In this document: positions 15,992 to 35,472 of the stretch, in pieces
Position numbering within the stretch: position 1 is the first letter of the stretch
How the letters are laid out: the number at the start of each line of letters is the position of its first letter
NCBI GenBank assembly: GCA_041691215.1
Contig: JBEPVB010000003.1
Location: 1 to 44,972, forward strand
DNA: 44,972 nt
DNA from: Chloroflexota bacterium
GTDB taxonomy: Bacteria; Chloroflexota; Limnocylindria; Limnocylindrales; CSP1-4
Reading direction: 5' to 3'
Made by a program: the position numbers and the translations under genes
The notes under the pieces: generated by a model
What the model saw: only the letters and a program-made list of their open reading frames with translations
Told to the model about the DNA's origin: nothing
The model's database searches: none

Positions 15992-15998
15992 GGTTGAG

Positions 15999-16622
15999 GT
16001 GATGGAAGCCAGCCTTCGCGACCACGCGATCGATCAGGCCTACCGCGAGCACGCCGCCGAGGTGTATCGCGTCGCCTTCGGCGTCCTCCGTGATCCGGAC
16101 GAGGCCATCGATGCAACGCATGACGCCTTCGCCCGGGCGTGGGAGCGCTGGGACCAGTACGACAGCAACAAGCCCCTCCGAGCCTGGCTCCACGGGATCG
16201 TCGTCCACCTGGCCCTCGATCGGCTCCGCCGCCAACGGGTCCGGCGGCTGGCCCTGCCGGCCCTCGGGAACGCCGCCGTCAACGAGATCAATGCCGGCCG
16301 CGGCCGGGACCTCGCGGCCGACGTCGTGAGCCGGGACGTGGTTGCCGAGGCCCTTGCCTCGCTGCCCGGACCGGTCCGGGCCGTGCTCGTCCTGCGCCAT
16401 TACTACGGCTACGACTACCGCGAGATCGGGGCGTTCCTCGGGATGCGCAGCGGGACCGTCGGCTCGACCTTGTCGCGTGCCCATGCCGACCTCCGGCGCA
16501 GGCTGGTCGGTCGCGAGGAAGGGGCCGGCGCCCCCGCACCGGGAACCACCCATCGCCCGCCGGGCATGGCCCAGGCGAAGCCCGCCGATCTCAACTCCGA
16601 GCCTCCCGAGGTGATCCGATGA
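15999..16622 (+). CDS. ECF sigma-70 factor
   Basis: Region 2 DEAIDATHDAFARAW..RAWLHGI; region 4 GYDYREIGAFLGMRSGTVGSTLSRA. Confidence 0.92.
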   Translation: MMEASLRDHAIDQAYREHAAEVYRVAFGVLRDPDEAIDATHDAFARAWERWDQYDSNKPLRAWLHGIVVHLALDRLRRQRVRRLALPALGNAAVNEINAGRGRDLAADVVSRDVVAEALASLPGPVRAVLVLRHYYGYDYREIGAFLGMRSGTVGSTLSRAHADLRRRLVGREEGAGAPAPGTTHRPPGMAQAKPADLNSEPPEVIR

Positions 16623-18409
16623 CCCACCACGACGACCACATCAGCGAACCGGGCCGCGACCCGTCACCGGGCGGCCAGCGCCTCGACGACGCGGACATCG
16701 GCCGAATCGTCCGGGACGTCGCCGACGGCTGGACGATGCCGGCGGTGCGCCTCGATCAGCCGGGCTGGCGGGATCGCGTCCGGAGCCCGCGCGTCCGTCG
16801 GGCCGCGGCGATCCGCGGCTGGACCGGACGGCTCGGCCAGGCGGCGGGGGCCGCCCTTGCCCTCACCGTTGGCGCCGCCCTCCTGGGGGTCTGGCTGACC
16901 CGGCCGCCAGGCCCGGCCGGCCAGACGGCCGTCCCGAGCCGGAACGGTTCGGCAAACACGACCCCGCGCCCGCGCTCGTCGCAGCCGCTGCCGAGCCAGC
17001 TGCCGAAGCTCTTCGTGGACGGCGAGGTTCCTTCGCCCTCGCAACTCGTCGTCAGCGTCGAGTCGGACTACGCGATCGTCGACCTGGCCAAGGGCACGAT
17101 CGGCAAGACGATCGCCTCCGGCCAGTGGGGTACCGACCTCCGTCGATCGCCCGACGGGTCGCTGTACTGCATCTGCCTCAGCGGCGACCGCTACGCGTCA
17201 GGCTCGTTCACCCACTTCAAGGTCGCCTGGAACAGCTATGACGCGACCGGCGCCGTGACCGCCTCGACCCAGATCGGTGACTACACCGGCGGACCCGACC
17301 CGAGGGATGCGGCGAGCCAGGACCTGGCCCAGCACGTGGCCGTCCACGTGACATACGCCTCCGATCCGCGGCTGGCTTTCGTCGGCTGGACCGTCCACTC
17401 GAATCCGGTCTGGAAGAGCGGCTTCGTCGTCGTCGACGTCAGGGACGGTTCGATCCTCCAGCGGATCGACCTGCCCGACAAGGCCGACGGAACGGCGGAC
17501 TCGCGAACCGGCGTCGACGCCCCGCGCGTGGTCGGGGCCATCGGCGGGGCGCGCCTCGCGGTGGCCCGGCCCTGGTACAGCTGGTCGCCACCGGTCAGCT
17601 CGAATCCGACCATGGTCTTCGGTGCCGACGCCTATTCGGCCGCCCTCGTTGGCAATCACATCGCGGCCGTTGATCCTCTGCCGGCAGCGCTCGGCTGCGG
17701 TGACGCCGTGACGGCCGCCGGCACCCTGCCCGGCTCGGGCTTCTGGCTGGGCTGCGTCGCCAATTCGTATCGCCAGGCGATCATTCGTCGCGTGGCCGGC
17801 GATGGCCACGTGATCGGCAACACGGTGGTCCAGGCCGCCGGCGACCTCGGCGGTGACGCGAGCTCGACGTCGGCCGTGAGCCCCGACGGCAGGGCCGTCT
17901 TCCTCTGGGATCCGACGGCCGATGTCCTGACCCGCGTCGACCTCGCCACCGGCGACACCTCGACCGGGACCGGGCAGACCACGGCCGATCTCGGCGGTCC
18001 CCTCAGTGCCCTCGGCCGGTGGCTGACGCCGACGGCGGAGGCCAAGGTCCTGCTGTCCTCGGGCATCGCAATATCACCCGATGGATCTCGGGTCTATGCC
18101 CTGGGAATCTCGCTCGATGGCGTCGCCGGGGCCGATACCTCGGGCTCGGCCGGGGTCTTCGTCTTCGATACATCGACCATGGTCCAGGTCGCCCACTGGA
18201 ACCCGACGGCGGACTTCGTGTCGCTCGCGGTGAGCAGGGACGGCGGAATCGTCTACGCGGCCGGCAGCCCCCAGTTCAACGCCAACGGCACGTCCACGAC
18301 CCAGGCCGCCTCGATCACCGCCTTCGATGCCAGCAGCGGCTCGATCCGCCTGATCGCGGGCCAGCTCGGGAGCGGGTTCCTGCTCTTCCCGTCGACGATC
18401 GTGCGCTGA
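16619..18409 (+). CDS. Probable anti-sigma factor, single TM plus extracytoplasmic beta-propeller
   Basis: ATGA overlap with sigma; one TM; repeated AVSPDG/AISPDG/AVSRDG blades. Confidence 0.7.
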   Translation: MTHHDDHISEPGRDPSPGGQRLDDADIGRIVRDVADGWTMPAVRLDQPGWRDRVRSPRVRRAAAIRGWTGRLGQAAGAALALTVGAALLGVWLTRPPGPAGQTAVPSRNGSANTTPRPRSSQPLPSQLPKLFVDGEVPSPSQLVVSVESDYAIVDLAKGTIGKTIASGQWGTDLRRSPDGSLYCICLSGDRYASGSFTHFKVAWNSYDATGAVTASTQIGDYTGGPDPRDAASQDLAQHVAVHVTYASDPRLAFVGWTVHSNPVWKSGFVVVDVRDGSILQRIDLPDKADGTADSRTGVDAPRVVGAIGGARLAVARPWYSWSPPVSSNPTMVFGADAYSAALVGNHIAAVDPLPAALGCGDAVTAAGTLPGSGFWLGCVANSYRQAIIRRVAGDGHVIGNTVVQAAGDLGGDASSTSAVSPDGRAVFLWDPTADVLTRVDLATGDTSTGTGQTTADLGGPLSALGRWLTPTAEAKVLLSSGIAISPDGSRVYALGISLDGVAGADTSGSAGVFVFDTSTMVQVAHWNPTADFVSLAVSRDGGIVYAAGSPQFNANGTSTTQAASITAFDASSGSIRLIAGQLGSGFLLFPSTIVR

Positions 18410-21324: not shown

Positions 21325-22209
21325 TCAGCCGCCCAGCCGGGCGGCCAGGACGGCCGGGGATCCGGTGCTCCCCGACGCGGGTTCGAGGCTGATGCCGAAC
21401 GTCGAGCCGGACCCGAGGGAGATCGTCGCCCAGCCGTCCAGGGAGCCGATCCAGTAGCCGGTGCCATCGGCAAAGAACATCCGGCCGACGGGCGATCGCT
21501 TGCCATCGAGCTCGACCCAGCAGCGATAGACGCCGTTGGCGGGCGGCGCCGCCAGGGTCGTGGTCAGGACAACGAGATCGTGGCTCGACCAGACGACCGA
21601 TCCACCTGCGGTCCCGGCCGGGGTTCGGAGCTCGACGATGCGATGCCTCGGATCGCGAACGACGCGGTCGAGGGTCACCGTCACCGCCGCCAGGGCCGCG
21701 GCGTCGGCGGTTGCCCGGTTGATCCGGCCGGCCTGGTCGAGGAGGAGCCCGCCGGCTACCACGACGACGGCCAGGACCGCCGCCAGGGGCAACAGCATCC
21801 GGCTGGTCAGCCGAACGCGGCCAGGGAGCGGGCTCGGCCGCAGCGCGCTGAGATCAGGGCCGGCGCCCGCGGCCGCCGCTTCGGCGGCTGAACGGCCTCC
21901 GACCGGGATCCCCTGGACGGCCATCCGGAGGGCGGCCGGCGCCGCGACTCGATCCTCGAGGGCGAGGTCCTCGAGACGTTGCGGTCCGCCGGGGCCGGCC
22001 AGCGCCTCGGCCACGCTGCCGTGGACGCGCTGCCAGTTGGCGATCTCGGCCCGGCAGGCGGCACAGGTCGTGACATGGGCGGCGAGCGGATCGGCCGGAC
22101 CCGGTGCCGGGGCGCCGTCGAGCTCGCCGGCCAGCTGCCGCAGGGCGGCCGGTTCGAGCGCCAGGTCGGCCAGCTGCTCATGGGCCGCCGAGTGGGAGAG
22201 GGGCGTCAC
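21325..22209 (-). CDS. RskA-like anti-sigma factor
   Basis: HVTTCAAC zinc-binding (ZAS) motif, one TM, C-terminal FGISLEPASGS. Confidence 0.85.
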   Translation of the reverse strand: MTPLSHSAAHEQLADLALEPAALRQLAGELDGAPAPGPADPLAAHVTTCAACRAEIANWQRVHGSVAEALAGPGGPQRLEDLALEDRVAAPAALRMAVQGIPVGGRSAAEAAAAGAGPDLSALRPSPLPGRVRLTSRMLLPLAAVLAVVVVAGGLLLDQAGRINRATADAAALAAVTVTLDRVVRDPRHRIVELRTPAGTAGGSVVWSSHDLVVLTTTLAAPPANGVYRCWVELDGKRSPVGRMFFADGTGYWIGSLDGWATISLGSGSTFGISLEPASGSTGSPAVLAARLGG

Positions 22210-22925
22210 CGTCGATCCACCGGGGGCGCCCCGGACGCCACCCGGGGCGAGCCTGGGCGGAGGTCGGGAACGCCTTCGAGGCGGTCGCGGAGACCCGCCA
22301 GCGCTCGGCGAGTCCGGGACTTCACGGTCCCGATCGGGACCGCGAGCCGGGCGGCGATCTCCGACTGGCTGAGGCCCTTGTCGTAGGCAAGGACGAGGAC
22401 ATCGCGTTCCTCGGGGCGCATCTCGGACAGCGTCGTCACCAGCAGGCTCCGGACCCAGCGGCGATCCGCCTCGCTCGCCGGCTCCTCGCGATCCGCGGCC
22501 ATGAGGGCCCGGCCGGCCCACGCGACCGGGTCGCTCGAATCGGATCCGCCGGCGTCGTCGGCCGGACGGACGATCCTCGGCCTGCGGGCCTCGGCCCGGA
22601 GGCGGTCGATGGCCCGGTTCCGGGCGATGCCGAGCATCCACGCGCCGAGCGAGCCGTGTTCGGGGTTGAACTGGTCCGACCGCCGCCAGACCGCGAGCAT
22701 CGTCTCCTGGACGATATCGGCGGCCGTATCCCGATCGCGAAAGAAGCGGAGGGCCGTCCCGAACAGCATGTCGCCGTAGCGGTCGTAGACCGTCATGAAG
22801 GCGCTGTCGTCGCCGCCGGCGATCCGCATCGCCAGCGCTCGATCATCGTGGGCGGCATGCCCCTCCCCGGGCGCGGCGGCAGGTTCCTCGCGCATGGGGA
22901 CATGGTGAGCCACCGCCTCTGACAT
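22206..22925 (-). CDS. ECF sigma factor (SigK-like)
   Basis: AADIVQETMLAVW, AWMLGIARNRAIDRLR, GLSQSEIAARLAVPIGTVKSR. Confidence 0.93.
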   Translation of the reverse strand: MSEAVAHHVPMREEPAAAPGEGHAAHDDRALAMRIAGGDDSAFMTVYDRYGDMLFGTALRFFRDRDTAADIVQETMLAVWRRSDQFNPEHGSLGAWMLGIARNRAIDRLRAEARRPRIVRPADDAGGSDSSDPVAWAGRALMAADREEPASEADRRWVRSLLVTTLSEMRPEERDVLVLAYDKGLSQSEIAARLAVPIGTVKSRTRRALAGLRDRLEGVPDLRPGSPRVASGAPPVDRR

Positions 22926-23401
22926 GTCGACGCCAGGTCAGCCGGTTCGGCGGGCGGGCCTCGTCATCCGGCCGTGGCAGAACGAGAGGCCGGCGAAGAT
23001 GCTCGACGCCGCAGCGATGGGAACCCAGATGTTCACGTCGACACTACGTGGAATGAGCTGGGTTCGGATCTCGCCGGCGGGTCGATCCCCGGGGCGACCG
23101 ATTCCCTCGCGAGGGGCGATTCTCAAGGATCTCTCAGGCGAGGCGACGAGCCTTCGAGTCAGCCCAAGCGCAGCCTCGACACCCTGGCTCTCCTCCGCCA
23201 GGCTGTCGTGGTGCGCGGCGCGGGCGTCCATACGTGATTCGGACCGCCGACCCGACGGCCGGCGGTCCGATTGGCGGCGACGACGGGTGCCGGTCGTCAG
23301 CCACCTGGAGCGCTCTGAGTGATGGCGGGCCTCCCGGGCGACGGCGCGAGTTCCGGCCGCCCGAATGCGGTCAGCGAGTCACCGTCGTCAAGGGGCTTCT
23401 T

Positions 23402-23803
23402 TCAGGCCGTCTCGCGGCGGAACACCTGGACGATCCAGAGGACGATGGCCTCCAGGATCGTCCAGCCCACGAGCGCGGCGAGGGCGGCGATATCGAGGGT
23501 GGATCCGCCGCTCGTGAGGGCGTTGCTATTGAAGATTCCCTCGAACGGCGCCACGAAGAGCTGGCTCGCGTTCAGGATGAAGGCCACGAGATCGTTGCCT
23601 TCGCGGGCATTGAGGAGCAGGAGCACCAGGCGCAGGACGATCAGGATCTGGATGATCCCGAAGATCAGGACCACCACGCGGCGGGCGACCTCGCCGCCGC
23701 TCGGGCTGACCGCGGTCTGGCGCTCGACCACCGAGGCGGATCGCCCGGTGGCCAGATCTTCGTCCTGTCTTCGGACGACACGTTCTTCGTACGTCATGCC
23801 CAC
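23402..23803 (-). CDS. YggT-family membrane protein
   Basis: LRLVLLLLNAREGNDLVAFILNASQLFVAPFEGIF. Confidence 0.8.
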   Translation of the reverse strand: MGMTYEERVVRRQDEDLATGRSASVVERQTAVSPSGGEVARRVVVLIFGIIQILIVLRLVLLLLNAREGNDLVAFILNASQLFVAPFEGIFNSNALTSGGSTLDIAALAALVGWTILEAIVLWIVQVFRRETA

Positions 23804-24056
23804 ATCCTCCGGTCATACGACCATCCGCCAATCAGGCGAGGCGGCGGGGTCTGCGTCCAGCATCTCGCCGGCGTGCTACAGGACCCCTTCCCAACCACCA
23901 GGCTGGCCTTGCATCGGCGAGTCAGCTGGGCACCCGAACTGGGCTTCCGTGCCGCGCGATCGCGATGCGACACGCCGATGCAATGGACTTGGGGCGCCTG
24001 ATGTCCCAGGTGCGCCTTCGAGCAGGCACGATCTGGATCTGCATGGAGGAACCCGC

Positions 24057-24464
24057 ATGAATGCACCGGCACTTCGCCTCGTCCCATCGGTCGACGAGGT
24101 TCGCGACCGGCTACCGGATATGCCCCACGTGAACCTGCCCAGCTTCCAGGACGTCGGCCGTCAGGCGGACGCGACCGTGGATCGCCTGCGTGGGCGTCCG
24201 GCGCGCCCCGGCTGGCTGGTCCCCCTGCTCGTGGTGGGCGTCGTCGGCGTGGTGGCCGCGATCGCCGCGACGGCCATGACGTGGGCTCGACGCCGGCCGC
24301 GCTGGATCGACGATGACGTCGATGGGCCCGATGGCATCGGCCAGCCGATCGGCTCCGATCCGGGCCTCGATGGCGATCCATCGGGTCTCGGCACCTTCGG
24401 TTCGCCTGGCCTGACCGCCTTCGATGGTGGGCCGTCGGTTGATCGCGAGGCCGGCGACCGCTGA
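24057..24464 (+). CDS. Hypothetical single-TM protein
   Basis: GGAGG RBS; PGWLVPLLVVGVVGVVAAIA TM; acidic Gly/Pro tail. Confidence 0.7.
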   Translation: MNAPALRLVPSVDEVRDRLPDMPHVNLPSFQDVGRQADATVDRLRGRPARPGWLVPLLVVGVVGVVAAIAATAMTWARRRPRWIDDDVDGPDGIGQPIGSDPGLDGDPSGLGTFGSPGLTAFDGGPSVDREAGDR

Positions 24465-24519
24465 GGGCGATGGCGTGCCTGCCGGTCCGCAGGCCCGGAC
24501 CCCATCCCGATCGCATCGC

Positions 24520-24558
24520 TGCAATTGTCCTGTCACGTCGACGCGATCGGGATGCAAC
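24520..24558 (+). promoter_or_regulatory. Four hexamers at 11-bp spacing (OmpR-type box array)
   Basis: TGCAAT 24520, TGTCAC 24531, CGCGAT 24542, TGCAAC 24553. Confidence 0.55.
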
Positions 24559-24635
24559 GCTCGCTTCATTACGCCTGTCCGACGATCCGTTGAGTCAAGT
24601 GAGACCGGGGGTCCAGGTCAACGTGGAGGACGTTC

Positions 24636-24764
24636 GTGAACCGCCCAGAGCTCGCCGACCAGCAAGGGGCACGCAACGTCGAGGATGCCTCGATGCGCGC
24701 CCTCGAGTACATCGTCGGCGGACTGGCCGCGATCGCGGCGCTCCTGTTGGGTCTCGTCCGCTGA
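24636..24764 (+). CDS. 42-aa single-TM microprotein (not in ORF track)
   Basis: GGAGG RBS, GTG start; MNRPELADQQGARNVEDASMRALEYIVGGLAAIAALLLGLVR. Confidence 0.65.
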   Translation: MNRPELADQQGARNVEDASMRALEYIVGGLAAIAALLLGLVR

Positions 24765-24804
24765 CCGAGCCTTGCCCGACGGGCCTGCCCGTCAAGAGGT
24801 CGGC

Positions 24805-25773
24805 TTGACCGTCAGCAGCGTCCTCTTCGACAAGTCCGGGGCCCCGACGAGCGTCGAGGCCGACCGCCGCGTTGCGCGGGCGCTCAAGGCTGATCAGCTC
24901 CTATGGGTCGACATCCTCGGCACCCCGGACGAGCTCCACCACGTCAGTGAAGCGCTCGAGATTCCCGAGATCCTGCGCTCGGACGACGGGACATCCAAGG
25001 TCCCCTCGATGGTGCGGGAGCACGGCTGGATCCGCCTCACCGTCGTCGCCATCCAGAACCCCGGCGAAGGAGCGGCCGCGCGGGATCCCATCGTCACCCC
25101 CGGGTTCCGGATCCTCGCCGGGAAGAACATCGTCATCACCATCCACGACGAAAGGATCGACGCCATCGACGCCCTGGCCGAGCAGTTCCGTGACGAGGCG
25201 GGGCTGGGCGTCCTCGCGGCTGCCGACCTTGTGGCCGGGGTCATCGACGAGGTCCTGACTATCTATCTCCGCCACGTCGAGGTGATCGAGCGCCGCATCG
25301 ACGTCCTCGACGAGCTCGCGATCCGGGGCCGGAGCGTGAAGACCTATCTCGGCGAGGTCGTGGCCCTGCGGCGGCGCATCGCCCTCCTCCGTCGATCCCT
25401 GGCGCCCCATCGAGAAGCCTTCGGTCCGCTTGCCCGGCCCGACTTCGAGGTCGCCGATCTCGGCCGGCCGTGGCCGGGCCTGGTCGAGCGCCTGGAGCGC
25501 ACGACCCAGGCCATCCAGAACGTCCGCGAGCTCCTGATCGGCTCCGTGGAGCTTCATCAGAGCAGCACCGCCGAACGGGCTAACGACGTCATGAAGCGCC
25601 TGACCCTGGTGAACGCAATCCTGCTGCCGGCGATCGTGCTGGCCGGGATCATGGGCATGAACTTCGACGTGCCCTTCTTCCAGAACCCGGCGAACTTCTG
25701 GGTGGTGCTGGGAGCGATGGCTGTGCTCGCGGTGGCGATCGTCCTCGTTGCCCGCGCTCGAGGCTGGACGTAG
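24805..25773 (+). CDS. corA: CorA-family Mg2+/divalent cation transporter
   Basis: ANDVMKRLT...GIMGMNF signature and two C-terminal TMs; TTG start after GAGG. Confidence 0.9.
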   Translation: MTVSSVLFDKSGAPTSVEADRRVARALKADQLLWVDILGTPDELHHVSEALEIPEILRSDDGTSKVPSMVREHGWIRLTVVAIQNPGEGAAARDPIVTPGFRILAGKNIVITIHDERIDAIDALAEQFRDEAGLGVLAAADLVAGVIDEVLTIYLRHVEVIERRIDVLDELAIRGRSVKTYLGEVVALRRRIALLRRSLAPHREAFGPLARPDFEVADLGRPWPGLVERLERTTQAIQNVRELLIGSVELHQSSTAERANDVMKRLTLVNAILLPAIVLAGIMGMNFDVPFFQNPANFWVVLGAMAVLAVAIVLVARARGWT

Positions 25774-25839
25774 GGGGTTCCGGTCCGGACGTTGGAGCGG
25801 GATTCTGCGTGACGGAGCGTGTCAGGGTCGGAGTCGGCC

Positions 25840-28800
25840 CTAGCGGTCCTCGTGCATGACCCGGAGAGAAAACCCGAACTCGGCGCCGCCCTCGGGACGG
25901 TTCGCCGCCCAGACCCGGCCGCCCATGGCGTCAAGGAGCCGGGCACAGACGAAGAGGCCGATGCCCGAGCCGCTGACGTGGGTGGCCGTGGACGGCGACC
26001 GGTAGTAGAGCTCGAAGAGACGACCGGCCTCGTCGGCGGGAAAGCCCGGCCCTTCGTCGAACACTCGTACCTGGACTTCCTCGCCCTCGGTCCGTGCCGC
26101 GAGCCGAATCGTCGCCTTCCGACCGCCGTACTTGACCGCGTTGGCGAGGAGGTTGCGGATGACCTGCTCGACGTACGTCGGATCGCCGGCGACCGGCGGC
26201 AGGCCGCCTTCCACGTCGACCTCGAACTGGCCGTCGGGCCAGCGGCTTTGCTCCGATCGGACGACCGTGGGGATGATCCGCTGCAGAAGGACGGGCTCGC
26301 TCCCGATCTCGAGGGCGCCCTCGCCGAAACGAGTCAGGGCCACGACGTCCTCGACGAGGCGGTGGAGGCGTTCCGCCTCCGCGTGGATGTCGTCGAAGAT
26401 GCCCCGGCGAGCCTCCGGCTCGAGGGCCGACTCGCTCCGGGACAGGACCTTGGCCCCGGCGTAGATGGTCGTGACCGGCGTTCGGAGCTCGTGCGACAGG
26501 ATCCCGACGAAGGCATCCCGGATCGCCTCCCGCTCACGGGCCGCGGTGACGTCCCGGAGGAGGACGATGTGCTCCCCGCCGGGCTGGAGCTCGTCGCCAA
26601 CCCCGTAGTTGCTGATCTCGATCCAGCGCTCCGACGGTGCCCGCAGGCGCAGGGTCGCCGAGGCTCCGGGCATCGCCAGCGCAGACCGGGCATGCCCGTC
26701 CGGATCCTCGAGGCGGGCGAGGACGGACTCCCTGGTCCAGTCGTCGAGGGGCTCGAGCATCGCCCTGGCCGTCGGATTCGCGAGCGTGATCCGGCCCTCC
26801 GCATCCATGACGATGAGGCCCTCGCCGATGGCCCCGATGATCGTGTTCAGCTCGGCCGCCCGAGCGTGCTCGGCCCGGGCAAGCTCCGTCAGGCGCCGCT
26901 CCGTCTCGATGCGCTCGCGGATCTCCCGGCTGATCGCCAGGAGCTGCCGTCCCGCTCCCGGGAGATCCACCATCTGCCACCGAATCTCGACCGGGACGCG
27001 CGTGCCGTCGGGTCGGACCCGAACCACGTCGAGCGCCCGGGTCGCCACTTCGTCGGTCAGGACCGGCTTGACGAACTGGCGGAGCTTGGCGAGGGAGAGG
27101 CCCTCGGTCCAGTCCGGTGTCGTCCTGCCCAGGACCTCCTCACGGACACGGCCGACCTGCTCGAGGAAGGCGTCGTTGGCGTAGGTGACCTGGAGGGTCG
27201 TTGGGCTGACCATCGTGACGCCATCGCGGACCGCATCGAGGATCGTCCGGAAGCTGGCCGCGTCGCGGAAGAGACGCGCGTTCTGGATCGCCGAGGCAGC
27301 CCGGGCCGCCACCTCCCGGGCGAACGGGACGTCGTCCGGTCCGAGAGCGTTGGCCGCTCCAACGGTGGCCATCGTCAGGGCGCCGATCGCTTCGCCGCCG
27401 ACGATCAGCGGGGCGCAGATGATCGACGTGCCGACCAACGATCGAATCGCCGTGGCTTCATCGGCCGAGATCGGCGGCAGATCGGCCAGGGCCTCGTCGA
27501 TCATCTCGGCAGTGATGGTCGTCGCGACCGGGATGCCGGACCGGACGACCCGCGAACCCAGCGATTCCGTTCCGAAGTCGGCAAAGCGCTCTCGCAGGGC
27601 GGCGATCTCGGTCAGGCGGGCCGAATCCGCATGGACCAGGGCAAGGTTCTGGAGCTTGCCGTCCTCACCGAGGAGGTCAACCGCGCTCCAATCGGCGATG
27701 GTCGGGACGGCCAGCCGGGCGACGCTGGCAATCGTTTCCTCGTAGTCGAGCGAGCCCGCCAGGATCGCGCTCGAGTCGGCGAGGAATGACGTCTGGACCT
27801 GCTGGCGATGCCGGGCCGTGATGTCCTCGAAGACGGCGACCCCGGCCACCGGCCGTCCGTCGGGCGCCAGGATCGGGGCGGACTGGGCCGCGATCCAGAC
27901 CTCGCCGCCGTCGGCCCGCCGAACACGAAGCTCCTCTGCCCGCACCGCCTCCCCTGTCCGGATCGTCCTGGCCAGCGGCCACTCCTGGGGCGGGATCGGG
28001 GTGCCGTCGGCCTCGAAGAGCTGCAGGTCCCGACGGCGTCGCTTGAGCGGCAGCTCGGACGTGCCGAGGATGCGCTCGAGCGCCTCGTTGGAGATCATCG
28101 TCCGGCCAGACGGAACGTCAGCCACGACGACGCCGCTGGGAAGGTTGCGGATGATCGCCTCGAATTGGTTGCGCTGGACCTCCAGGTCGGAGAGCAGGAC
28201 CTCTGTCCGTGTCGTCGACGCCTCGGCCGCCCGCCGGGCTGCCTGCTCCGCGGCGTAGAGGCGGGCATTGCCGAGGGCCAGGGCGATTCGCCGGGCAAGC
28301 TCCATTGCATAGACCGCGTCCGCCTCCTCGTAGCGCCGCGAATCGTTGGCCGAGGCGAGGAACAGGACGCCCTCGACACTCCCCCGGGCCACGAGTGGCA
28401 CCGCCATCGCGCTCGAGGTCCCGAGCTCCCGGATCGTCTCCATGAGCCCCGGCCGCGTCGGATCGTCGATCAGGTTCTCGGGCGACACGTTGGCGATCAC
28501 CGGGCGCCGTTCGAGGATCGCCCGGTCGCCTGCCCGACCGGCCCCGGGCTCGACGCTGAAGGCCCGCAGCCGATCCGCCAGCTCGACCTGGGCCGCGTCG
28601 GCGACGGCCACGCCGACCCGCTCGACCGAGCCATCGGCATGGACGAGGTCCAGGGTGGCCCAATCAGCCAGGTGGGGAACGGCCAGGGCCATGGCCTTGG
28701 CAACGGTTCGATCGAGGTCCAGCGCTTCGTCGAGTTCATGGGTCGCGTCGGCGAGCAGGCGGGATCTCGCCTCGCTCACTCGCAGCGCTTCCTCGGTCAG

Positions 28801-29235
28801 CTTCGAGGCGGTAACGTCGTGGGTGATGTTGACCGAGAATTCGGCCCGGCCGTCAGCGTCGAGGAGGGGAACGGCCGAGAGCGAGCTCCAGCCCTCGGCG
28901 CCGTTGGTCCGGTCTCGCCAGCGGAGGACGATCGCCTGCGGGAGGCCGGTCCGGAGGGCTACCCGGGACGGCAGCTCCGCCGAATCGACCCGGCGGCCAA
29001 GCTCGTCGAACATCTCGAACCGGTCGAGCCGGCTCGGCCAGTCCGCGGCCAGGAGCTCGTCGTTCGACGAGCGGCCGGATGCCCGGACTGCCGCCGCGTT
29101 GGCGAACACGATGTTGCCGTCCACGTCCTGGACCGTGATGGGATCGACGACCGCGTCGACAACGCCGGCCAGGCGTTCGATCCGAAAGGCATCCCGGCCG
29201 GGGGCGGCAGATTCGAGATCTCGGAGCGCGCTCAT
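25840..29235 (-). CDS. Soluble multi-PAS/GAF sensor histidine kinase
   Basis: PAS and GAF repeats; LSHELRTP, NLLANAVKY, DEGPG, GSGIGL; no TM seen. Confidence 0.93.
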   Translation of the reverse strand: MSALRDLESAAPGRDAFRIERLAGVVDAVVDPITVQDVDGNIVFANAAAVRASGRSSNDELLAADWPSRLDRFEMFDELGRRVDSAELPSRVALRTGLPQAIVLRWRDRTNGAEGWSSLSAVPLLDADGRAEFSVNITHDVTASKLTEEALRVSEARSRLLADATHELDEALDLDRTVAKAMALAVPHLADWATLDLVHADGSVERVGVAVADAAQVELADRLRAFSVEPGAGRAGDRAILERRPVIANVSPENLIDDPTRPGLMETIRELGTSSAMAVPLVARGSVEGVLFLASANDSRRYEEADAVYAMELARRIALALGNARLYAAEQAARRAAEASTTRTEVLLSDLEVQRNQFEAIIRNLPSGVVVADVPSGRTMISNEALERILGTSELPLKRRRRDLQLFEADGTPIPPQEWPLARTIRTGEAVRAEELRVRRADGGEVWIAAQSAPILAPDGRPVAGVAVFEDITARHRQQVQTSFLADSSAILAGSLDYEETIASVARLAVPTIADWSAVDLLGEDGKLQNLALVHADSARLTEIAALRERFADFGTESLGSRVVRSGIPVATTITAEMIDEALADLPPISADEATAIRSLVGTSIICAPLIVGGEAIGALTMATVGAANALGPDDVPFAREVAARAASAIQNARLFRDAASFRTILDAVRDGVTMVSPTTLQVTYANDAFLEQVGRVREEVLGRTTPDWTEGLSLAKLRQFVKPVLTDEVATRALDVVRVRPDGTRVPVEIRWQMVDLPGAGRQLLAISREIRERIETERRLTELARAEHARAAELNTIIGAIGEGLIVMDAEGRITLANPTARAMLEPLDDWTRESVLARLEDPDGHARSALAMPGASATLRLRAPSERWIEISNYGVGDELQPGGEHIVLLRDVTAAREREAIRDAFVGILSHELRTPVTTIYAGAKVLSRSESALEPEARRGIFDDIHAEAERLHRLVEDVVALTRFGEGALEIGSEPVLLQRIIPTVVRSEQSRWPDGQFEVDVEGGLPPVAGDPTYVEQVIRNLLANAVKYGGRKATIRLAARTEGEEVQVRVFDEGPGFPADEAGRLFELYYRSPSTATHVSGSGIGLFVCARLLDAMGGRVWAANRPEGGAEFGFSLRVMHEDR

Positions 29236-29489
29236 CCCCTCCTCGCGGGCGGTGTCCCACTCGGCATCGTAGCCCAGGCCACCCGGGCGGGGGAACTGGG
29301 AGGCGCCGGAATCCCTGCTTACAGCTTCGTCACAGTTTCGGGGCCGCCGGGAGCGGGAAGCGGCCAGCAAGGACGCGAGGCCGTTGTTACGCACGCCCGA
29401 CCCGCCGTAGTCCCCCCGGCGGGTCGCGGCGTCGACAGTGCAGGACGGGCCGAGGCAGGCCCGAAAACATTGATTGGATGGAGGTTCTC

Positions 29490-29771
29490 ATGAGCCTGAT
29501 CGCGTGGATCGTCCTCGGGGCGATCGCCGGCTATCTCGCCGGCTTCCTCGTTCGCGGCGACGAGGGCATGGGCGTTCTGGGACACATCGTCCTTGGGATC
29601 GTCGGCGCCCTCATCGGCGGCTTCCTGGCCAGCGCCCTGTTTGGCGTTGATGCCATCAACGGCGCCCTGGACGTCAGCTCCATCGTCACGGCCACGATCG
29701 GGGCGATCATCGCGGTCCTCGTCTGGAACGCGGTGACCGCTAGAACCCGCACGGGCCGCGGCGTCGTCTGA
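29490..29771 (+). CDS. GlsB/YeaQ/YmgE-family stress membrane protein
   Basis: IAWIVLGAIAGYLA...IVLGIVGALIGGFL...ATIGAII. Confidence 0.92.
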   Translation: MSLIAWIVLGAIAGYLAGFLVRGDEGMGVLGHIVLGIVGALIGGFLASALFGVDAINGALDVSSIVTATIGAIIAVLVWNAVTARTRTGRGVV

Positions 29772-29792
29772 CGCCGGCAAGTCAGGCAGTCC

Positions 29793-29828
29793 GGACGCCC
29801 ACCGAGCAACGGTGGGCGTCCCCATTTT
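29793..29828 (+). terminator. Intrinsic terminator
   Basis: GGACGCCCACCG-agcaa-CGGTGGGCGTCC 12-bp stem followed by CCATTTT. Confidence 0.75.
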
Positions 29829-29947
29829 CCGGGCTACCGAGTCCCGGGAGGCCGTCGAAACGTGCAGCGGAGCCAGCCCATGACCCATATCGTCGAACAC
29901 CTCAGCATCGATCACCAACTGCCCGTCGTGACGGAGCCAGAGCGATC

Positions 29948-30337
29948 ATGACCACGGTCTACGTCGACCACGACGCCATCGTGGAGGGCGCTCGCAGCGC
30001 CAGCAGGCCCGATGAAGGCTCGCTGCGATCGCTCGGCTTCCTGCTCGAGGCCGGCCACGAGGTGATCCTGGTCGTCGAGCCTGGCCATGAGCCTCGCCCA
30101 GCGCCGATCCGCGACTGGGCGACGATCGGCGTGGGCAACGTGCCCCTCCGGCCCGATCACCCCTCCTGGTACCTGACAACCGAGGTCGATCGCTGTCGGG
30201 GCCGGTCGGCCCACCTGCGGACGGTCCTGATCGGGCTGTCACCCGCGGCAGCGGCGATCCACCGCTGCGACACCCTGGCCCGCGATGTCCCGGCCGCGGT
30301 CCTCGAGATCCTGGCCGCCGAGGCGATGCGGCCCTGA
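29948..30337 (+). CDS. Hypothetical protein, truncated HAD-like pattern
   Basis: TVYVDHD, LLEAGHEVILV, LRTVLIG, CDTLARDVPAAV. Confidence 0.6.
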   Translation: MTTVYVDHDAIVEGARSASRPDEGSLRSLGFLLEAGHEVILVVEPGHEPRPAPIRDWATIGVGNVPLRPDHPSWYLTTEVDRCRGRSAHLRTVLIGLSPAAAAIHRCDTLARDVPAAVLEILAAEAMRP

Positions 30338-30651
30338 CGACCCGGAGGGGTCGGGCCACGGAAGCTCGGGCGGCGACCGAAACGCGACTACAAGGCGTCG
30401 CCGCCGAGGGGCATGACCAGCTACCGGGGCGGCAGGGATGATGTCGGCAGGCCCGGCGACCCGCTCGCCGGTTCGTTCCTCCCGGGGGGCCTGCGAAACA
30501 CGCCGGCCCCCCCACCCTCCCCCGACCGTCCGCTCCCCCGGGCGGTCGCGCCCCCGGATTCCCGGACGCTGGCACATCAGAACGCCGCGTCTCGGGGGAG
30601 ACGCGGCGTTCGTGCCGAAGGTGGTTCCCGCCTCTTCGCGGGTCGAGGGCC

Positions 30652-31044
30652 TCACCGGGAGTCGAGCGATCCGCTCCTTGTTCGACCCTGGTCGCGGCGG
30701 TCCATGAGCACGAGGCCCACGGCTGCCACGGGCAGGAGGGCAACGGCGATCAGGATCCGCGGAGCTCCGCCCAGGAGCATCCCGATCGCCAGCCCGAGCG
30801 ACATCGTCGCCCCGGCCGAGATCTGCTGATCCGAACCGGCCTCGATGCGGCGCATGGCGCCCTCAGCGAGACCACGGGACGTTCGCGCGACCTCGGGGAT
30901 CGAGGCCCGCACCGTGTCCACGGCATCGCCCACTTGGGTCGTCGCGGCCCGGACCGCGTCGCGGGCGGTATCGATGCTGTCGCGGGTCCCGGCTCGAGGC
31001 CCACGCCCCGTCGTCGGCTGCTCCAGTGCACTGTTCTTCGTCAT
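30652..31044 (-). CDS. Hypothetical protein with C-terminal TM hairpin
   Basis: AGGAGG RBS; helical N-terminus and two hydrophobic segments. Confidence 0.7.
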   Translation of the reverse strand: MTKNSALEQPTTGRGPRAGTRDSIDTARDAVRAATTQVGDAVDTVRASIPEVARTSRGLAEGAMRRIEAGSDQQISAGATMSLGLAIGMLLGGAPRILIAVALLPVAAVGLVLMDRRDQGRTRSGSLDSR

Positions 31045-31096
31045 TGCTGACCTCCTGTTCCTGTCGGGATGGGCGCCTCCCGCTGGCGTTCACGGC

Positions 31097-31113
31097 TGCA
31101 ACCGGACTGCAAC
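31097..31113 (+). promoter_or_regulatory. Perfect TGCAAC direct repeat at 11-bp spacing
   Basis: TGCAAC at 31097 and 31108 in a divergent intergenic region. Confidence 0.55.
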
Positions 31114-31206
31114 GCCCGGTGCCCTTTGGGGCGTGTGATACGGACCGTCGGCTTCGTACGTTCAGGGCCACTGGAGCCATCGGCTCCTGCAAACGAGGAG
31201 ATCGAC

Positions 31207-31446
31207 ATGGACGATTCCAAGCGCGCCGCTCGGGACATGGAAGACGACGCCAAGGAGGCCTGGCGCGGGGCGGACGGCGAATCGCTCGCCGACAAGGCAG
31301 CCAACGCCGGCGATCGCATTCACCACGGGATCGAGAACGCCGGCGACGAGATCCACAAGGACGTCGACGAAGCCGGACGGCACGTCGAGTACGAGAAGGG
31401 TCGCATCGACGAGATCAACCGCGAGGGTGATCCCGGCGCCCGCTGA
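31207..31446 (+). CDS. Hydrophilin/LEA-like small protein
   Basis: GAGGAG RBS; D/E/K/A/G-rich with 11-aa periodicity (NAGDRIH / NAGDEIH / EAGRHVE). Confidence 0.75.
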   Translation: MDDSKRAARDMEDDAKEAWRGADGESLADKAANAGDRIHHGIENAGDEIHKDVDEAGRHVEYEKGRIDEINREGDPGAR

Positions 31447-31462
31447 GCGGCCGACACGCGAC

Positions 31463-32416
31463 TCATCCGTCGCGGGGGCCCCCGGCCGATCGTGCCACCG
31501 TTCGGTGGTGCGGCAGGCCGGGGGCTCGAATCTGTCCGCCCCAAGATCGGCGCGCTGCTGCTGCCGTGGCCGCATGGCGCCAGTGGTGACCTCGGCGGAT
31601 CCGGCGCGGCCTCGTCATGGCCGCCGAGTCATCGCCACGCGCGAGCGGCTGAGCAGCCAGCTCGGACGCGCCTGGGATGACCCGGTAGGCGCCCGACGGG
31701 AACAGGCCCGCGCCGCCGGCGTGCGCCAGCAGCCGCAGCTGGGCCGCGGTTTCCAGGGTCAGCGGTCCGCTCTGGCGACCCTGCCCGGGAGCCTCGAATC
31801 CGCCACGGGCCCGCAGCGCCGACGCGTCGTAGAGGACGCAGCCACGAATCTCCGAGACGCGATACAGCCGGTCTCGCGTCCGCGGAAGGCGTTCCCGGAG
31901 GTGCTCGAGGTTCGCTCCGCGATGAACACGCCGGCGGTTCCACGCGGGACTCCAGACCTTGACATCCTCGGGCCGAACCGGGCCGTCCCAGAACTCGATG
32001 ACCTCCTCGTCAGGCCGGTGGTCACCCAGGAAACGGAGGTCGACGACGGCCGAACCGACGAACCCGCAGCGCGTCGCCCTTATGGCTGCCACCAGCCGGC
32101 CCAGCAGGTCGGGCTCGAGGTACACACCGTCGTCGATCACCAGGAGGTATGGCGCGGCCACGGCCTCGAGGAGGACCTGGCGCCGGCGGCCGGGTGTCGC
32201 CGCGGCTGGCAGAGCGGCCAGTCGCACCGGGTGGCCGCGGGCTTCGAGGATCGCTGCCAGCCCGGCGACCGGTGAGCTCAACGTCTCACCCGGCGGGCGC
32301 GCCGAGGCCACGCTGAAGGCCGGATAGCGCTGGCTGGCAAGCGACGCGAGCGTCGTGGCCAGGCCATCGGGCGTCCAGGCCTCGGGAACGACGACCTCGA
32401 CCATCGGGGGTATCAC
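31463..32416 (-). CDS. Glycosyltransferase family 2-like protein
   Basis: VEVVVP, TLASLASQRYP, YLLVIDDGV, GCVLYD. Confidence 0.75.
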   Translation of the reverse strand: MIPPMVEVVVPEAWTPDGLATTLASLASQRYPAFSVASARPPGETLSSPVAGLAAILEARGHPVRLAALPAAATPGRRRQVLLEAVAAPYLLVIDDGVYLEPDLLGRLVAAIRATRCGFVGSAVVDLRFLGDHRPDEEVIEFWDGPVRPEDVKVWSPAWNRRRVHRGANLEHLRERLPRTRDRLYRVSEIRGCVLYDASALRARGGFEAPGQGRQSGPLTLETAAQLRLLAHAGGAGLFPSGAYRVIPGASELAAQPLARGDDSAAMTRPRRIRRGHHWRHAATAAAARRSWGGQIRAPGLPHHRTVARSAGGPRDG

Positions 32417-32624
32417 GTGGTCAAGTCTCTCGCCCTCGACGCAACGGGCGTCCGCGAGCGAACGGCCCTGACCTTGCACCGGACCTACAGGGCCGGCGTG
32501 CGGCGCGGCCCCGCGACCGCGCTGGCGCGAGGCACCTGCAAGGGCGACCCCCCGGGAGGGCGCGCGTCCGAGAGTGCCCGGCGGCCAGGATGGACCCCAC
32601 GGCCGAACGCCTGGAGGACCACGC

Positions 32625-32858
32625 ATGCAGAAGCAGGACCCGATCTCGACGCCGGAGCAGCTCCGTTCGAGCCCGGTCGACGACGTCACCTACGACCTGC
32701 TGCAGGCGCTGACCTCGAAGCTCGAGGCGATCGAGGCGTACCAGATGTATGCCGACGACGGCGGCGACGTGGCGGACCTGTTCGGTCGGCTCGCGGCTGA
32801 GGACCGCGTCCACGCCCAGGAGCTCCTGGACGCCCTCCGCGGACGCCTGGACCGCTAG
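32625..32858 (+). CDS. Minimal ferritin-like helical protein
   Basis: GGAGG RBS; YDLLQALTSKLEAIEAY...AAEDRVHA (ExxY, EDxxH). Confidence 0.75.
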   Translation: MQKQDPISTPEQLRSSPVDDVTYDLLQALTSKLEAIEAYQMYADDGGDVADLFGRLAAEDRVHAQELLDALRGRLDR

Positions 32859-32885
32859 ACTCAACGGGCCGCCGACCGCAACCGC

Positions 32886-32913
32886 TGTTATGCGGATGTA
32901 ACGGATATGCAAT
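32886..32913 (+). promoter_or_regulatory. Three hexamers at 11-bp spacing upstream of the response regulator
   Basis: TGTTAT 32886, TGTAAC 32897, TGCAAT 32908. Confidence 0.6.
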
Positions 32914-33086
32914 GTCGGACGGCCGCATCCGGCAGCCATCGGCCGCGACGATGGAGGTAGCTCGGTGCGCTCGGCCAGGGCGGCCTTTCGGGTCGCAGGG
33001 CTCGCCCCACTGGGGTGGCAATCGTTGCCCGGGGTAGCCATCGTTCAGCGCCCGCACACTCGGTGTACCGCACCCAGGAGGCAGCC

Positions 33087-33845
33087 GTGTCGACACAGCC
33101 GCTCGTGCTCGTTGCCGATGACGAGCCCCGGATCACCAAGCTCGTGGCCATTGCCCTGTCTGAGGAAGGCTTCCGCGTCGTAACTGCCAACAGCGGCGAG
33201 CAGGCCCTCGAGAAGGCCGAGGAGATCCGGCCCGACATCGTCCTCCTCGACATCGTGATGCCCGACCTCGACGGCATCGAGGTCATGCGCCAGCTCCGCG
33301 AGCGCCGGCCTGTGCCGGTGATCCTCCTCACCGCCAAGGGCTCGACCGCCGACAAGGCCAAGGGTCTCGATCTCGGCGCCGATGACTACATCGCCAAGCC
33401 CTTCCACCCCGACGAGCTGGCCGCCCGCGTTCGGGCCGTCATCCGGCGCTCAAGCGGTGCCGAGCCGGGCGCCGGCGTCATCCGCTTCGACGACGTCGAG
33501 ATCGACCTCGAGCGGCGGATGGTCACCCGCAACGGCGAGCTCGTCCAGCTTTCCCGGACCGAGTGGCTCCTCCTCCAACACCTGGCCGCGAATGCCGGCA
33601 AGGTCGTCCTCCACACCGAGCTCCTGACCAAGGTCTGGGGTCCGGAGTATCGCGACGACCTCCAGTACCTCCGGGTGTGGGTCAGCCGCGTTCGCCGCAA
33701 GCTCGGTGCCGCGCCCGGCGAACCGGGCCGGATCCGGACCTTCCAGGGCATCGGCTACCTCCTCGACGTCGAGGGCGCGGCGACCATCCGGACCAAGGAC
33801 GAGGTCGAAGCCGAAGGACCGCCCGAGGTCGCCCTGATCGGCTGA
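33087..33845 (+). CDS. OmpR/PhoB-family response regulator (KdpE-like)
   Basis: VADDE, LLDIVMP, GADDYIAKPF, VWGPEY..LRVWVSRVRRKL. Confidence 0.95.
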   Translation: MSTQPLVLVADDEPRITKLVAIALSEEGFRVVTANSGEQALEKAEEIRPDIVLLDIVMPDLDGIEVMRQLRERRPVPVILLTAKGSTADKAKGLDLGADDYIAKPFHPDELAARVRAVIRRSSGAEPGAGVIRFDDVEIDLERRMVTRNGELVQLSRTEWLLLQHLAANAGKVVLHTELLTKVWGPEYRDDLQYLRVWVSRVRRKLGAAPGEPGRIRTFQGIGYLLDVEGAATIRTKDEVEAEGPPEVALIG

Positions 33846-33891
33846 TCCGAGGGCTGGAGGCGGCCTGCGGCCGCGTTCCTGGCGCGGGCTG

Positions 33892-35472
33892 TCAGGCGAG
33901 GGCGCGCTCGACGGGATCCGTCGAATCACCGGTCGAGGCGACCGCCTCGCCGCCGAGCCGGCCCCAGCCGCCGCGGGCGGCCGTCGCCCCCGTGAGGGCG
34001 GGCCAGCCATCGTGCTCGATGGTATCGAACGTCCAGGCGACCGCCGCAAGGGCGCGTTCGGCGTGGTCGAGGGCGATACCGGCCAGCTGCCGCGGCGCCA
34101 GGGATCCGGCCAGGTCCCGGGCGACGTCAGCGGCAGCACGGGCGGCCGAGAACATCGCGGTGGCATCGCCCGATCCCGGCTGCGCCCGGCGGAGCGTGAT
34201 CGCGACGCCGGAGCCGGGCAGGATAGCGGCCGCGATGGCCGGCCATCTGCTGGGCGGCTCCGAGCCAGATGGCTCGACGAAGGCAAGTGGATGATCCGGC
34301 AGGAGCAGCCGACGAAGAGCGACCTCGGCCGCGGCCCGGGCCGCGGTATCGGGTTCGCCGGTCAGCCAGGCCGGCAGGGCGCCGACGATGATCCGATCGG
34401 CCGGCAGGCCCGATGCGATCGCCATGTCGGCGGCGATCATCTGGAGGGCCAGCGCCCGGCCCGAGCGCGTTGGCGGGTCCGCGTTCATCCCGGCGTCGAG
34501 GTCCGGGGCGACGACGAGCGGACCGGCTCCGAGGTGGATGCTCGCCCCCGCCCGGCGGATGACCCGGACCGCAAAGCCGAAGTCGGCCAGGGCCCGCTCC
34601 GGGTCGACGCCGGTGACCACGATCTCGCTCATCGGATCGAGGTCCAGGAGGTCCGCCCGTTCGAAGGCCGCCACGATCGCTCCCTCGGGGGCCGCCAGGG
34701 CCGTCGGCGCGATGGCCAGGCGGACGTAGGCACCCCGTTCCGCGGCCGCGCGATCGAGGACATTGCGCAGATGGGCCAGACCCCGCTGGCTGCCGGCCGG
34801 GGCCGGCTCGAGATCCGAATCGTCGGAACGGGGCCGCCAGCCGATCTCGTGGCCGAGCTCGCCGAGCCGCGTTGCCAGCTCGCGACCGGCTGGGACCTCG
34901 ACACGCACGAGGTCCAGACCGGCCCGGATCAGGGCCGTGGCTTCGCCCTCGGCGTCGTCCGTGCCCGCCTCGTGGAGGGTCGCGCCAATCCACGGCGGCT
35001 GGCGGTCGCCGAGGATCGCCTGGAGCTCGCGGCGAGCCACCCGATTGGCATCGATCCGCGCCACCGCGGCGACGACCAGGCGGCCGAGGTGGTCCGCCGC
35101 CGCGGTCCGCCGCTCGGGCGTTTCGAGGAGGGCCGCCTCCAGGGCCAGGTCCACAGCGCCGCCGGCGACGTCGATGGCTAGCGACTGGGGGGTGGTGTCG
35201 TACTCCAGGAGGGCAACCGCGAACGCCAGCCCGACCCCGGCGGCCAGCCGGTCCTGGCGGCCGCTCACGTAACGATCGACGACCTCGGCCGCGAGCGGCC
35301 TCCCCACCCGGTCGATGCCCCCTACGCCGATGAGCCGCAGGATCGCCCGCTCACGGCCGAGGGTCGTGGCCGAACGGGCGGCCCCCGCCAGCGAGGCACC
35401 GAGCGCTCGCGAGCGCCCGGTCAGGCGGGCATGCTCCTCCGCGAACCCCCCGGTATCCAGCGACCGCGCCAT
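33892..35472 (-). CDS. Divergent lysine 5,6-aminomutase alpha-subunit-like protein
   Basis: TTLGRERAILRLIGVGGID..GRPL, GSQRGLAHLRNVLD...YVRL, APEGAIVAAFERAD resemble KamD. Confidence 0.65.
   Translation of the reverse strand: MARSLDTGGFAEEHARLTGRSRALGASLAGAARSATTLGRERAILRLIGVGGIDRVGRPLAAEVVDRYVSGRQDRLAAGVGLAFAVALLEYDTTPQSLAIDVAGGAVDLALEAALLETPERRTAAADHLGRLVVAAVARIDANRVARRELQAILGDRQPPWIGATLHEAGTDDAEGEATALIRAGLDLVRVEVPAGRELATRLGELGHEIGWRPRSDDSDLEPAPAGSQRGLAHLRNVLDRAAAERGAYVRLAIAPTALAAPEGAIVAAFERADLLDLDPMSEIVVTGVDPERALADFGFAVRVIRRAGASIHLGAGPLVVAPDLDAGMNADPPTRSGRALALQMIAADMAIASGLPADRIIVGALPAWLTGEPDTAARAAAEVALRRLLLPDHPLAFVEPSGSEPPSRWPAIAAAILPGSGVAITLRRAQPGSGDATAMFSAARAAADVARDLAGSLAPRQLAGIALDHAERALAAVAWTFDTIEHDGWPALTGATAARGGWGRLGGEAVASTGDSTDPVERALA

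Follow-up and report, generated by a model that had tools for sequence, protein, structure and literature searches.

Conserved hexamer boxes one helical turn apart upstream of a response-regulator gene island in an uncultured Chloroflexota genome

The window considered here is a stretch of 44,972 nucleotides (positions 1 to 44,972 of contig JBEPVB010000003.1, forward strand; contig C3) from an uncultured Chloroflexota bacterium of the class Limnocylindria (GenBank assembly GCA_041691215.1; 2,472,242 bp, or 2.47 Mb, 70.6% G+C, 221 contigs). At 23.4–33.9 kb it carries an accessory gene island, a 10-kb cluster whose genes were re-called from third-position G+C, ribosome-binding sites (RBSs) and ortholog alignments. 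The island encodes an OmpR/PhoB-family response regulator, a soluble PAS/GAF histidine kinase, a CorA-type channel, a GlsB/YeaQ-type protein and small proteins, some with transmembrane (TM) segments (Table 1). Hexamer boxes repeated at a period of 11 bp stand before nearly every transcription unit of this island, and before the orthologues of nine of these units they persist in related genomes, where the intergenic DNA around them no longer aligns. An earlier sequence-only reading had taken them for direct repeats of OmpR/PhoB type, about one helical turn apart; their conservation and 11-bp phase at nine of about ten transcription units bear this out, and they behave like conserved cis-elements with OmpR/PhoB-type direct repeats.

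The phased hexamers that the sequence-only reading had listed before corA, before the gene for a 79-amino-acid (79-aa) protein, before the regulator gene and, on the minus strand, before the kinase gene are all present where it had placed them (Table 1). Counted on both strands, the genome has two copies of the exact pair TGYAAY-N5-TGYAAY, and both lie in the window, at 31097 and 32897; the 401 single TGYAAY hexamers of the genome would lead to about 0.03 such pairs. With one mismatch allowed, spacing 11 gives 12 pairs, the highest count of 28 spacings (6 to 33; the others give 0–9), and 4 of the 12 fall in the window. Looser hexamers tell another story over the whole genome, with 22 pairs at spacing 11 against 16–31 at spacings 9–13, and a scan with a position-weight matrix (PWM), built from the regulator sites of other genomes, likewise shows no genome-wide excess at spacing 11; this matrix gives too much weight to the G after the hexamer and for that reason did not pick up 31097/31108. 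The boxes thus stand out locally and not over the genome as a whole. Across 81 boxes the base after the hexamer is G in 78, and hexamer position 3 is C in 39 and T in 39.

Conservation in orthologous loci was followed promoter by promoter, and the counts given for the 135-aa, micro-ORF/CorA (ORF, open reading frame), kinase, GlsB and ferritin-like promoters include the window's own row. Upstream of the regulator gene all three boxes (at most 2 mismatches) are kept in 15 of 17 orthologous loci of the same genus, with two boxes in one further locus and none in the other, and the conserved boxes have the consensus TGTAATGC-N3-TGYAACGGTTCTGCAATG. Among all distinct orthologous regulator upstream regions in the set the three-box array (at most 3 mismatches) is found in 27 of 36, box columns are 0.87 conserved as against 0.56 for the 257 other non-coding columns, and more distant regulator orthologues (62–83% identity) retain YGCAAY repeats 11 bp apart. 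The 79-aa gene has its pair at -106 to -134, with TAnnnT 42–44 nt past box 2, in 26 of 29 orthologous upstream regions. Before YggT orthologues, TGCAAY/G with nAnnnT 42–44 nt downstream is present in 12 of 13 cases, and one has TGTCAT. At the kinase gene the box pair and TACGAT/TAGGAT are kept in 5/5 loci; at the micro-ORF/CorA promoter boxes 1 and 2 are kept in 5/5 and box 4 in part, as TGC..CGC, whereas conservation is lacking at box 3, and GACGAT lies 44 nt after box 2 and 22 nt after the last box. The weaker pairs of the sequence-only reading fared well on the whole: that at 29374/29385 recurs, as TGYWAYG (TGTTAC in the window) with nAnAGT/CATCGT, in 8 of 9 GlsB upstream regions, GlsB in the ninth standing directly after YggT, and that at 32526/32537 keeps its second box, TGCAAG/C, in 4/4 loci of the ferritin-like gene. 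The pair that had been put at 23955/23966 was 2 nt out of register, the conserved pair before the 135-aa gene being CGACAC at 23968 and TGCAAT at 23979, where GCGACAC-N-TGCAA and CACGAT/GAGGAT are kept in 5/5 aligned loci. Membership of the GT2-like gene in the boxed set is tentative, on thin evidence: its box fits the 42–44 nt rule in the window, and one relative has TGCGAT-N5-TGCAAC on the same side.

Table 1. Genes and proposed promoters of the island (window coordinates).
Feature	Position	Strand	Details
YggT promoter	23859..23924	-	TGACTC (23924-23919), TGCAAG (23913-23908), 43 nt, -10-like GATGCT (23864-23859)
135-aa TM gene promoter	23968..24032	+	CGACAC 23968, TGCAAT 23979, -10-like CACGAT 24027-24032
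Micro-ORF/CorA promoter	24520..24586	+	TGCAAT 24520, TGTCAC 24531, CGCGAT 24542 (degenerate), TGCAAC 24553; -10-like GACGAT 24581-24586
Kinase promoter	29266..29334	-	TGTGAC (29334-29329), TGTAAG (29323-29318), 46 nt, -10-like TACGAT (29271-29266)
GlsB promoter	29374..29439	+	CGCGAG 29374, TGTTAC 29385, 43 nt, -10-like GACAGT 29434-29439
79-aa gene promoter	31097..31162	+	TGCAAC 31097, TGCAAC 31108, 43 nt, -10 TACGTT 31157-31162
GT2 box pair (tentative)	within 31463..32489	-	TGTAGG (32489-32484) / TGCAAG (32478-32473)
77-aa ferritin-like gene promoter	32526..32591	+	CGCGAG 32526, TGCAAG 32537, 43 nt, -10-like CAGGAT 32586-32591
Regulator promoter	32886..32952	+	TGTTAT 32886, TGTAAC 32897, TGCAAT 32908, 33 nt, -10-like GACGAT 32947-32952
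YggT-like membrane protein gene	23402..23797	-	ATG 23797; Pfam YGGT 24.7 bits, cut-off 27
135-aa single-TM protein gene	24057..24464	+	RBS GGAGGA before ATG 24057; no Pfam family
42-aa TM micro-ORF	24636..24764	+	RBS GGAGGA before GTG 24636; directly upstream of corA
CorA-type Mg2+/Co2+ channel gene	24805..25773	+	Pfam CorA E 1.1e-41
Soluble multi-PAS/GAF histidine kinase gene, 1131 aa	25840..29235	-	ATG 29235; Pfam PAS, GAF, HisKA, HATPase_c
GlsB/YeaQ-type gene	29490-29771	+	Pfam Transgly_assoc E 4.2e-10
129-aa protein gene	29948-30337	+	no family match
130-aa protein gene, C-terminal TM segment	30652..31044	-	divergent from 79-aa gene; no Pfam family
79-aa hydrophilic protein gene	31207..31446	+	no family match
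GT2-like gene	31463 to ~32413	-	start probably near 32413; Glyco_tranf_2_3 22.1 bits, cut-off 27
77-aa ferritin-like/EncB-like gene	32625..32858	+	Rubrerythrin 18.5 bits (cut-off 22.8); EncB_fam 21.1 (cut-off 90)
OmpR/PhoB-family response regulator gene, 251 aa	33090..33845	+	GTG 33090; start set by ortholog alignment and RBS

The promoters share one layout, in which a weak hexamer is followed after 5 nt by a strong TGYAAY, usually with a G behind it, and after a further 42–46 nt by a conserved nAnnnT, and TGYAAY always appears on the sense strand of the downstream gene. Extra boxes (a third at the regulator gene, one turn closer, and one or two more at CorA) are all in 11-bp phase with the common pair. 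A strong box with nAnnnT 42–44 nt later has 203 matches in the genome, 8 of them within 23300–33100 where about 0.8 would be expected; six unrelated offsets give 0, 0, 1, 1, 1 and 1 matches in the island, and a shift by one more repeat yields 3, all of them upstream boxes of the promoters already counted. If nAnnnT is the -10 hexamer, the common pair would cover about -73 to -56. That the boxes arose by chance or from local base composition and have no function is scarcely credible: the loose pair models with no genome-wide excess at spacing 11 would fit such an origin, and it is opposed by position-specific conservation across dozens of genomes in diverged spacers and by the offset-specific control (8 island matches versus 0–1).

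The ECF-type (extracytoplasmic-function) sigma factor gene at 22206-22925 (minus strand) borders the island and lies near YggT in two relatives, and its product, or another alternative sigma factor of this type, might be thought to use the hexamer as its -35 element, TGCAAC being similar to some ECF -35 motifs. This explanation was rejected on spacing and on tandem repetition and is given very little credence, as the conserved -10-like element lies 42–46 nt from the box and not 16–18 nt, the alignment of the 79-aa gene shows no conserved CGT-type element 16–17 nt past the box, and boxes that repeat two to four times at 11-bp phase are unlike a -35 element. No link between the sigma factor gene and the boxes was found.

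Three observations beside these promoters concern single loci. In five loci (L029, L030, L032, L034 and L018) the regulator's boxes lie 410–450 nt upstream with a small extra ORF (...NVxVxLP...AP...) in between, which suggests that this ORF and the regulator gene may form a two-gene operon there. In the 5' untranslated region of the 79-aa gene, between the proposed -10 and the RBS (31173..31187, plus strand), there is a hairpin with a 6-bp helix; 92.3% of cells are paired over 24 sequences, and 12 cells are changed on both sides (GGAGC/GCTCC versus GCGGC/GCCGC), a level reached in 0 of 500 shuffles. The hairpin may be a 5'-terminal stabiliser, and a search of Rfam over 22000-35000 gave no match at an E of 1 or below. 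Three genomes (L112, L119 and L137 in G001, G069 and G046), two of which are without the regulator, share an almost unchanged stretch, tcaagcagNgaTGCAACCGNTGTGCAAYgNcagcggacc; a simple gene call placed no gene downstream of it, and it probably represents coding sequence or else an unrelated conserved element with a chance match to the pattern.

The regulator belongs to the OmpR/PhoB family (Response_reg E 3.3e-32; Trans_reg_C E 2.7e-19) and is about 40% identical to the solved structures of PhoP, RegX3, KdpE and MtrA, while its scores lie below every NCBIfam equivalog cut-off compared, namely RpaB (214.9 bits against 330), MtrA (205.8/300), PhoB (192.1/296.2), YycF (189.1/340) and KdpE (185.6/325). 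The recognition helix of the regulator and the H-box of the kinase look KdpE/KdpD-like by eye; both scores are far below cut-off, and no KdpDE identity is claimed. Of 60 other genomes of the genus, 36 hold an orthologue of the regulator (85–97% identity); these are metagenome-assembled genomes 58–94% complete. The exact box pattern has 74 matches in these 36 genomes and 7 in the 24 without the regulator (19 and 4 for the reversed control), so that it is about 7 times commoner per genome where the regulator is present. The regulator also accompanies the island genes, being found in 30 of 30 GlsB-bearing genomes of the genus, in 24 of 25 with the SRPBCC gene and in 26 of 30 with the 79-aa gene.

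The local regulator fairly probably controls its own gene and activates the island, since its own promoter holds the best and longest array, sites cluster around the regulator gene in many genomes, the exact pattern tracks the regulator across genomes and the island genes occur almost only with it. Several points weigh against this reading. Under loose models the genome as a whole has no surplus of pairs at spacing 11 and only a weak one of the promoter layout. The co-occurrence counts come from kin genomes and overstate independence; the genomes that lack the regulator also lack the whole island, so that the targets are never seen apart from it; and we infer the -10 elements, and hence the -73/-56 positions, from conservation only. 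The genome also holds 14 further OmpR-type regulators, and the half-site class is common to several OmpR-family subfamilies. These last two points lead to another explanation, that the boxes are real and bound by another factor, for example another OmpR/PhoB-family regulator, the local regulator gene being one target among others. The form TGTNAY-N5-TGTNAY is common to the WalR and PhoB classes, and the local regulator falls under all orthologue thresholds, so that its specificity cannot be read from a known family. Another binder is nonetheless unlikely, given the strength of the array at the regulator's own promoter, the clustering of sites at its gene and the roughly sevenfold excess of the pattern in regulator-bearing genomes; moreover, no match was noted before a phosphate or cell-wall gene, as PhoB or WalR would predict, the downstream genes having been judged by partial translation only.

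Autoregulation and activation by the local regulator may be set beside known systems of the same family. WalR/VicR sites are given as TGTWAH-N5-TGTWAH, and the PhoB box, CTGTCATA(A/T)A(A/T)CTGTCACA, as closely similar to the WalR site (PMC4168254); a second source gives the RpaB HLR1 half-site as (G/T)TTACA, the reverse complement of TGTAA(A/C) (PMC6525291). The half-site of the island thus matches the family of the regulator (the WalR/PhoB class), which supports an OmpR-type binder. WalR/VicR (YycF) of the Firmicutes is like the present case in being an OmpR-family regulator that binds two hexamers 5 nt apart (PMC4168254). The pair at 32886/32897 (TGTTAT-N5-TGTAAC) fits the WalR consensus exactly, and most other boxes are TGCAAY or weak upstream half-sites. 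The G after the hexamer also resembles the conserved seventh base of VicR sites. The two cases differ in that the regulator scores well below the YycF cut-off, C is as often found as T at hexamer position 3, the kinase is soluble and shares no operon with the regulator, and the boxed genes encode CorA and small proteins of unknown function in place of cell-wall hydrolases.

With PhoB/PhoR the island has in common direct repeats, an 11-bp period and a TGTCA core (PMC4168254). It would also share with PhoB/PhoR an autoregulated two-component system, and in NCBIfam the kinase comes closest to the PnpS and PhoR types, though under the cut-off in each case. A pho box takes the place of the -35 element, and in contrast the conserved pair of the island lies about two turns further upstream; no phosphate genes were seen among the targets here, and the regulator is below the PhoB cut-off. 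RpaB of cyanobacteria is the best NCBIfam match of the regulator, and RpaB controls small membrane proteins under stress with an effect that depends on site position; against this, the match is below the equivalog cut-off, there are no photosynthesis genes, the kinase type differs, and HLR1 has a 10-nt period (8-nt repeats with a 2-nt gap) and not 11 (PMC6525291).

The kinase is of the HisKA type (HisKA E 4e-13; HATPase_c E 1.9e-23), with three or more PAS and two GAF domains, and it has no hydrophobic segment (maximum 19-residue Kyte-Doolittle mean 1.81) and no TM segment. It does not form a classical two-component operon with the regulator, the two genes lying 3.85 kb apart on opposite strands (kinase minus, regulator plus). 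Of 13 kinase cores in the genome, 9 are within 1.2 kb of a same-strand receiver and the island kinase is not; no receiver adjoins it, and the nearest is the island regulator. Full-length orthologues (core 79–84% identical) occur in 6 genomes of the genus and shorter forms (67–70%) in 6 more; all 12 of these genomes also have the regulator, and where positions can be compared the kinase orthologues mostly share a contig with the regulator, CorA or the 79-aa gene. The kinase promoter has a conserved pair, and the kinase is therefore at least a target of the boxed set; that this soluble orphan kinase is also the partner of the regulator in this genome is somewhat favoured. The sequence-only reading had gone further and let the local pair run a stress response. 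Boxes at nearly all units, the regulator's own array, the kinase boxes and the co-occurrence of the genes speak for its view; the stress label and the kinase pairing are its weak side, a kinase orthologue having been found in only 12 of 36 regulator-bearing genomes and in none of the other 24. In two genomes, furthermore, the exact box pair stands before a different, membrane-bound PAS kinase (L116 in G014:C86; L121 in G050:C235), whose core is about 43–45% identical to that of the window's kinase and which has no counterpart in this genome; the kinase that serves the regulator may vary from species to species.

These same two observations enter a further explanation, in which the local regulator binds the boxes but represses or acts in both directions, or is controlled by a different kinase, the PAS/GAF kinase being a target and not the partner. 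Repression might also be read from the divergent 130-aa gene, whose start lies 20–50 nt from the first box before the 79-aa gene and which could be hindered by binding there. This explanation is rather improbable. The sites keep a constant helical phase upstream of the -35 region and the promoters show no conserved strong -35, which is the usual layout of activator-dependent promoters (class I activation); as for another kinase, every kinase-bearing genome also has the regulator, and the boxes of the kinase promoter are kept at each of the five loci.

Beyond the island the set of boxed genes is less easily drawn. One unlinked site, at C34:16355 (minus strand), stands before an SRPBCC gene and has the geometry of the island promoters, which three relatives keep at stand-alone copies; a pair with a correctly spaced -10 is found in 4 of 28 SRPBCC upstream regions, those of the genome itself and of these three relatives. 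Most SRPBCC copies in islands are without boxes of their own, which counts against activation by the regulator; they sit in a GlsB–SRPBCC–129-aa row and appear to be co-transcribed. In the closest relative the GlsB gene, the SRPBCC gene and the 129-aa gene follow head to tail, no box pair was found before 29948 in the window, and the GlsB and 129-aa genes are probably on one transcript. Contig C34 at about 10400–18000 (G000, locus L210) looks like a second small island, with an orphan 391-aa PAS kinase, the SRPBCC gene, a membrane protein and a second GlsB paralogue; a 391-aa gene there has a box pair (14460) 73 nt upstream.

A loose promoter model (strong box, 42–44 nt, nAnnnT, then an RBS and an ORF) is weakly enriched, with 48 matches in the genome against 30–40 for control offsets, and cannot alone define unlinked members. 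Its unlinked matches include C167:410 (minus), C37:13323 (plus), C120:500 (minus) and C1:41918 (minus), and the genes behind them encode a Ni-superoxide-dismutase-like protein, a hemerythrin-like fragment, a glycine-rich 95-aa protein and a 134-aa protein. The first of these proteins carries the motif HCDLPCGVYDP. Given the background of the model, some of these matches are likely due to chance.

The functions of the island genes are sketched by family searches of uneven strength. The CorA, PAS/GAF kinase, GlsB/YeaQ and OmpR-type labels of the sequence-only reading pass the Pfam cut-offs, and its YggT, GT2 and ferritin-like labels (the last from rubrerythrin) score below the Pfam gathering cut-offs and are leads only. 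Its 'LEA-like' label for the 79-aa protein found no family, and the 79-, 129-, 130- and 135-aa proteins have none in profile searches. CorA itself matches PF01544 with 143.5 bits over profile positions 2–289 of 292, the defining feature being a CorA domain with a C-terminal TM pair, and true CorA orthologues (57–67% identity) were found in 4 of 60 genomes of the genus, each time adjoining the kinase. The 42-aa TM micro-ORF is kept in 5/5 loci that hold the CorA orthologue and might act as a leader peptide or form a small subunit. YggT-like orthologues are found near the regulator in relatives, and orthologues of the 135-aa TM protein there are 30–46% identical. The 130-aa protein has orthologues 49–75% identical and falls in hypothetical Chloroflexota clusters of the Atlas, with a weak DUF883_C lead (0.79), and the 79-aa protein has only 17 relatives, none of them named and none with a Pfam domain.

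GlsB/YeaQ-type, small hydrophilic or membrane, ferritin-like and SRPBCC proteins are also familiar from the SigB, RpoS and PhyR-EcfG regulons. The island differs from these in that control appears to depend on an ordinary -10 preceded by a response-regulator site and not on a special sigma promoter. Of the stress-type family names only Transgly_assoc passes its cut-off, and the label 'general stress' is best taken as a suggestion, drawn from weak family names, of which several fall under threshold or are missing, and from this likeness to known regulons. A limited full-text literature search by class name met no description of a transcription-factor site or regulon for Limnocylindria.

In the mechanism proposed here the phosphorylated local regulator would bind the sites head to tail and would activate transcription from a position upstream of the -35 region, with its own gene and the kinase gene among the activated targets, which would give positive feedback; the soluble multi-sensor kinase would be the probable phosphodonor in this genome. 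The island is then probably a small self-controlled module, an ordinary autoregulated two-component circuit of the OmpR family. More tentatively, and with a good deal of doubt, it may be the core of a stress response (to drying, osmotic or oxidative stress, for example) of soil Limnocylindria, in which a cytoplasmic multi-PAS/GAF kinase and an orphan OmpR-type regulator with a fixed site near -65 would do without an alternative sigma factor; about 60% of the genus would carry this accessory module, with several small-protein families that have no known relatives and a micro-ORF-led CorA. The boxes define a compact candidate regulon, some nine promoters of uniform geometry together with a defined regulator and a candidate kinase, for which heterologous tests would be straightforward, and several small proteins without a family gain a regulatory context.

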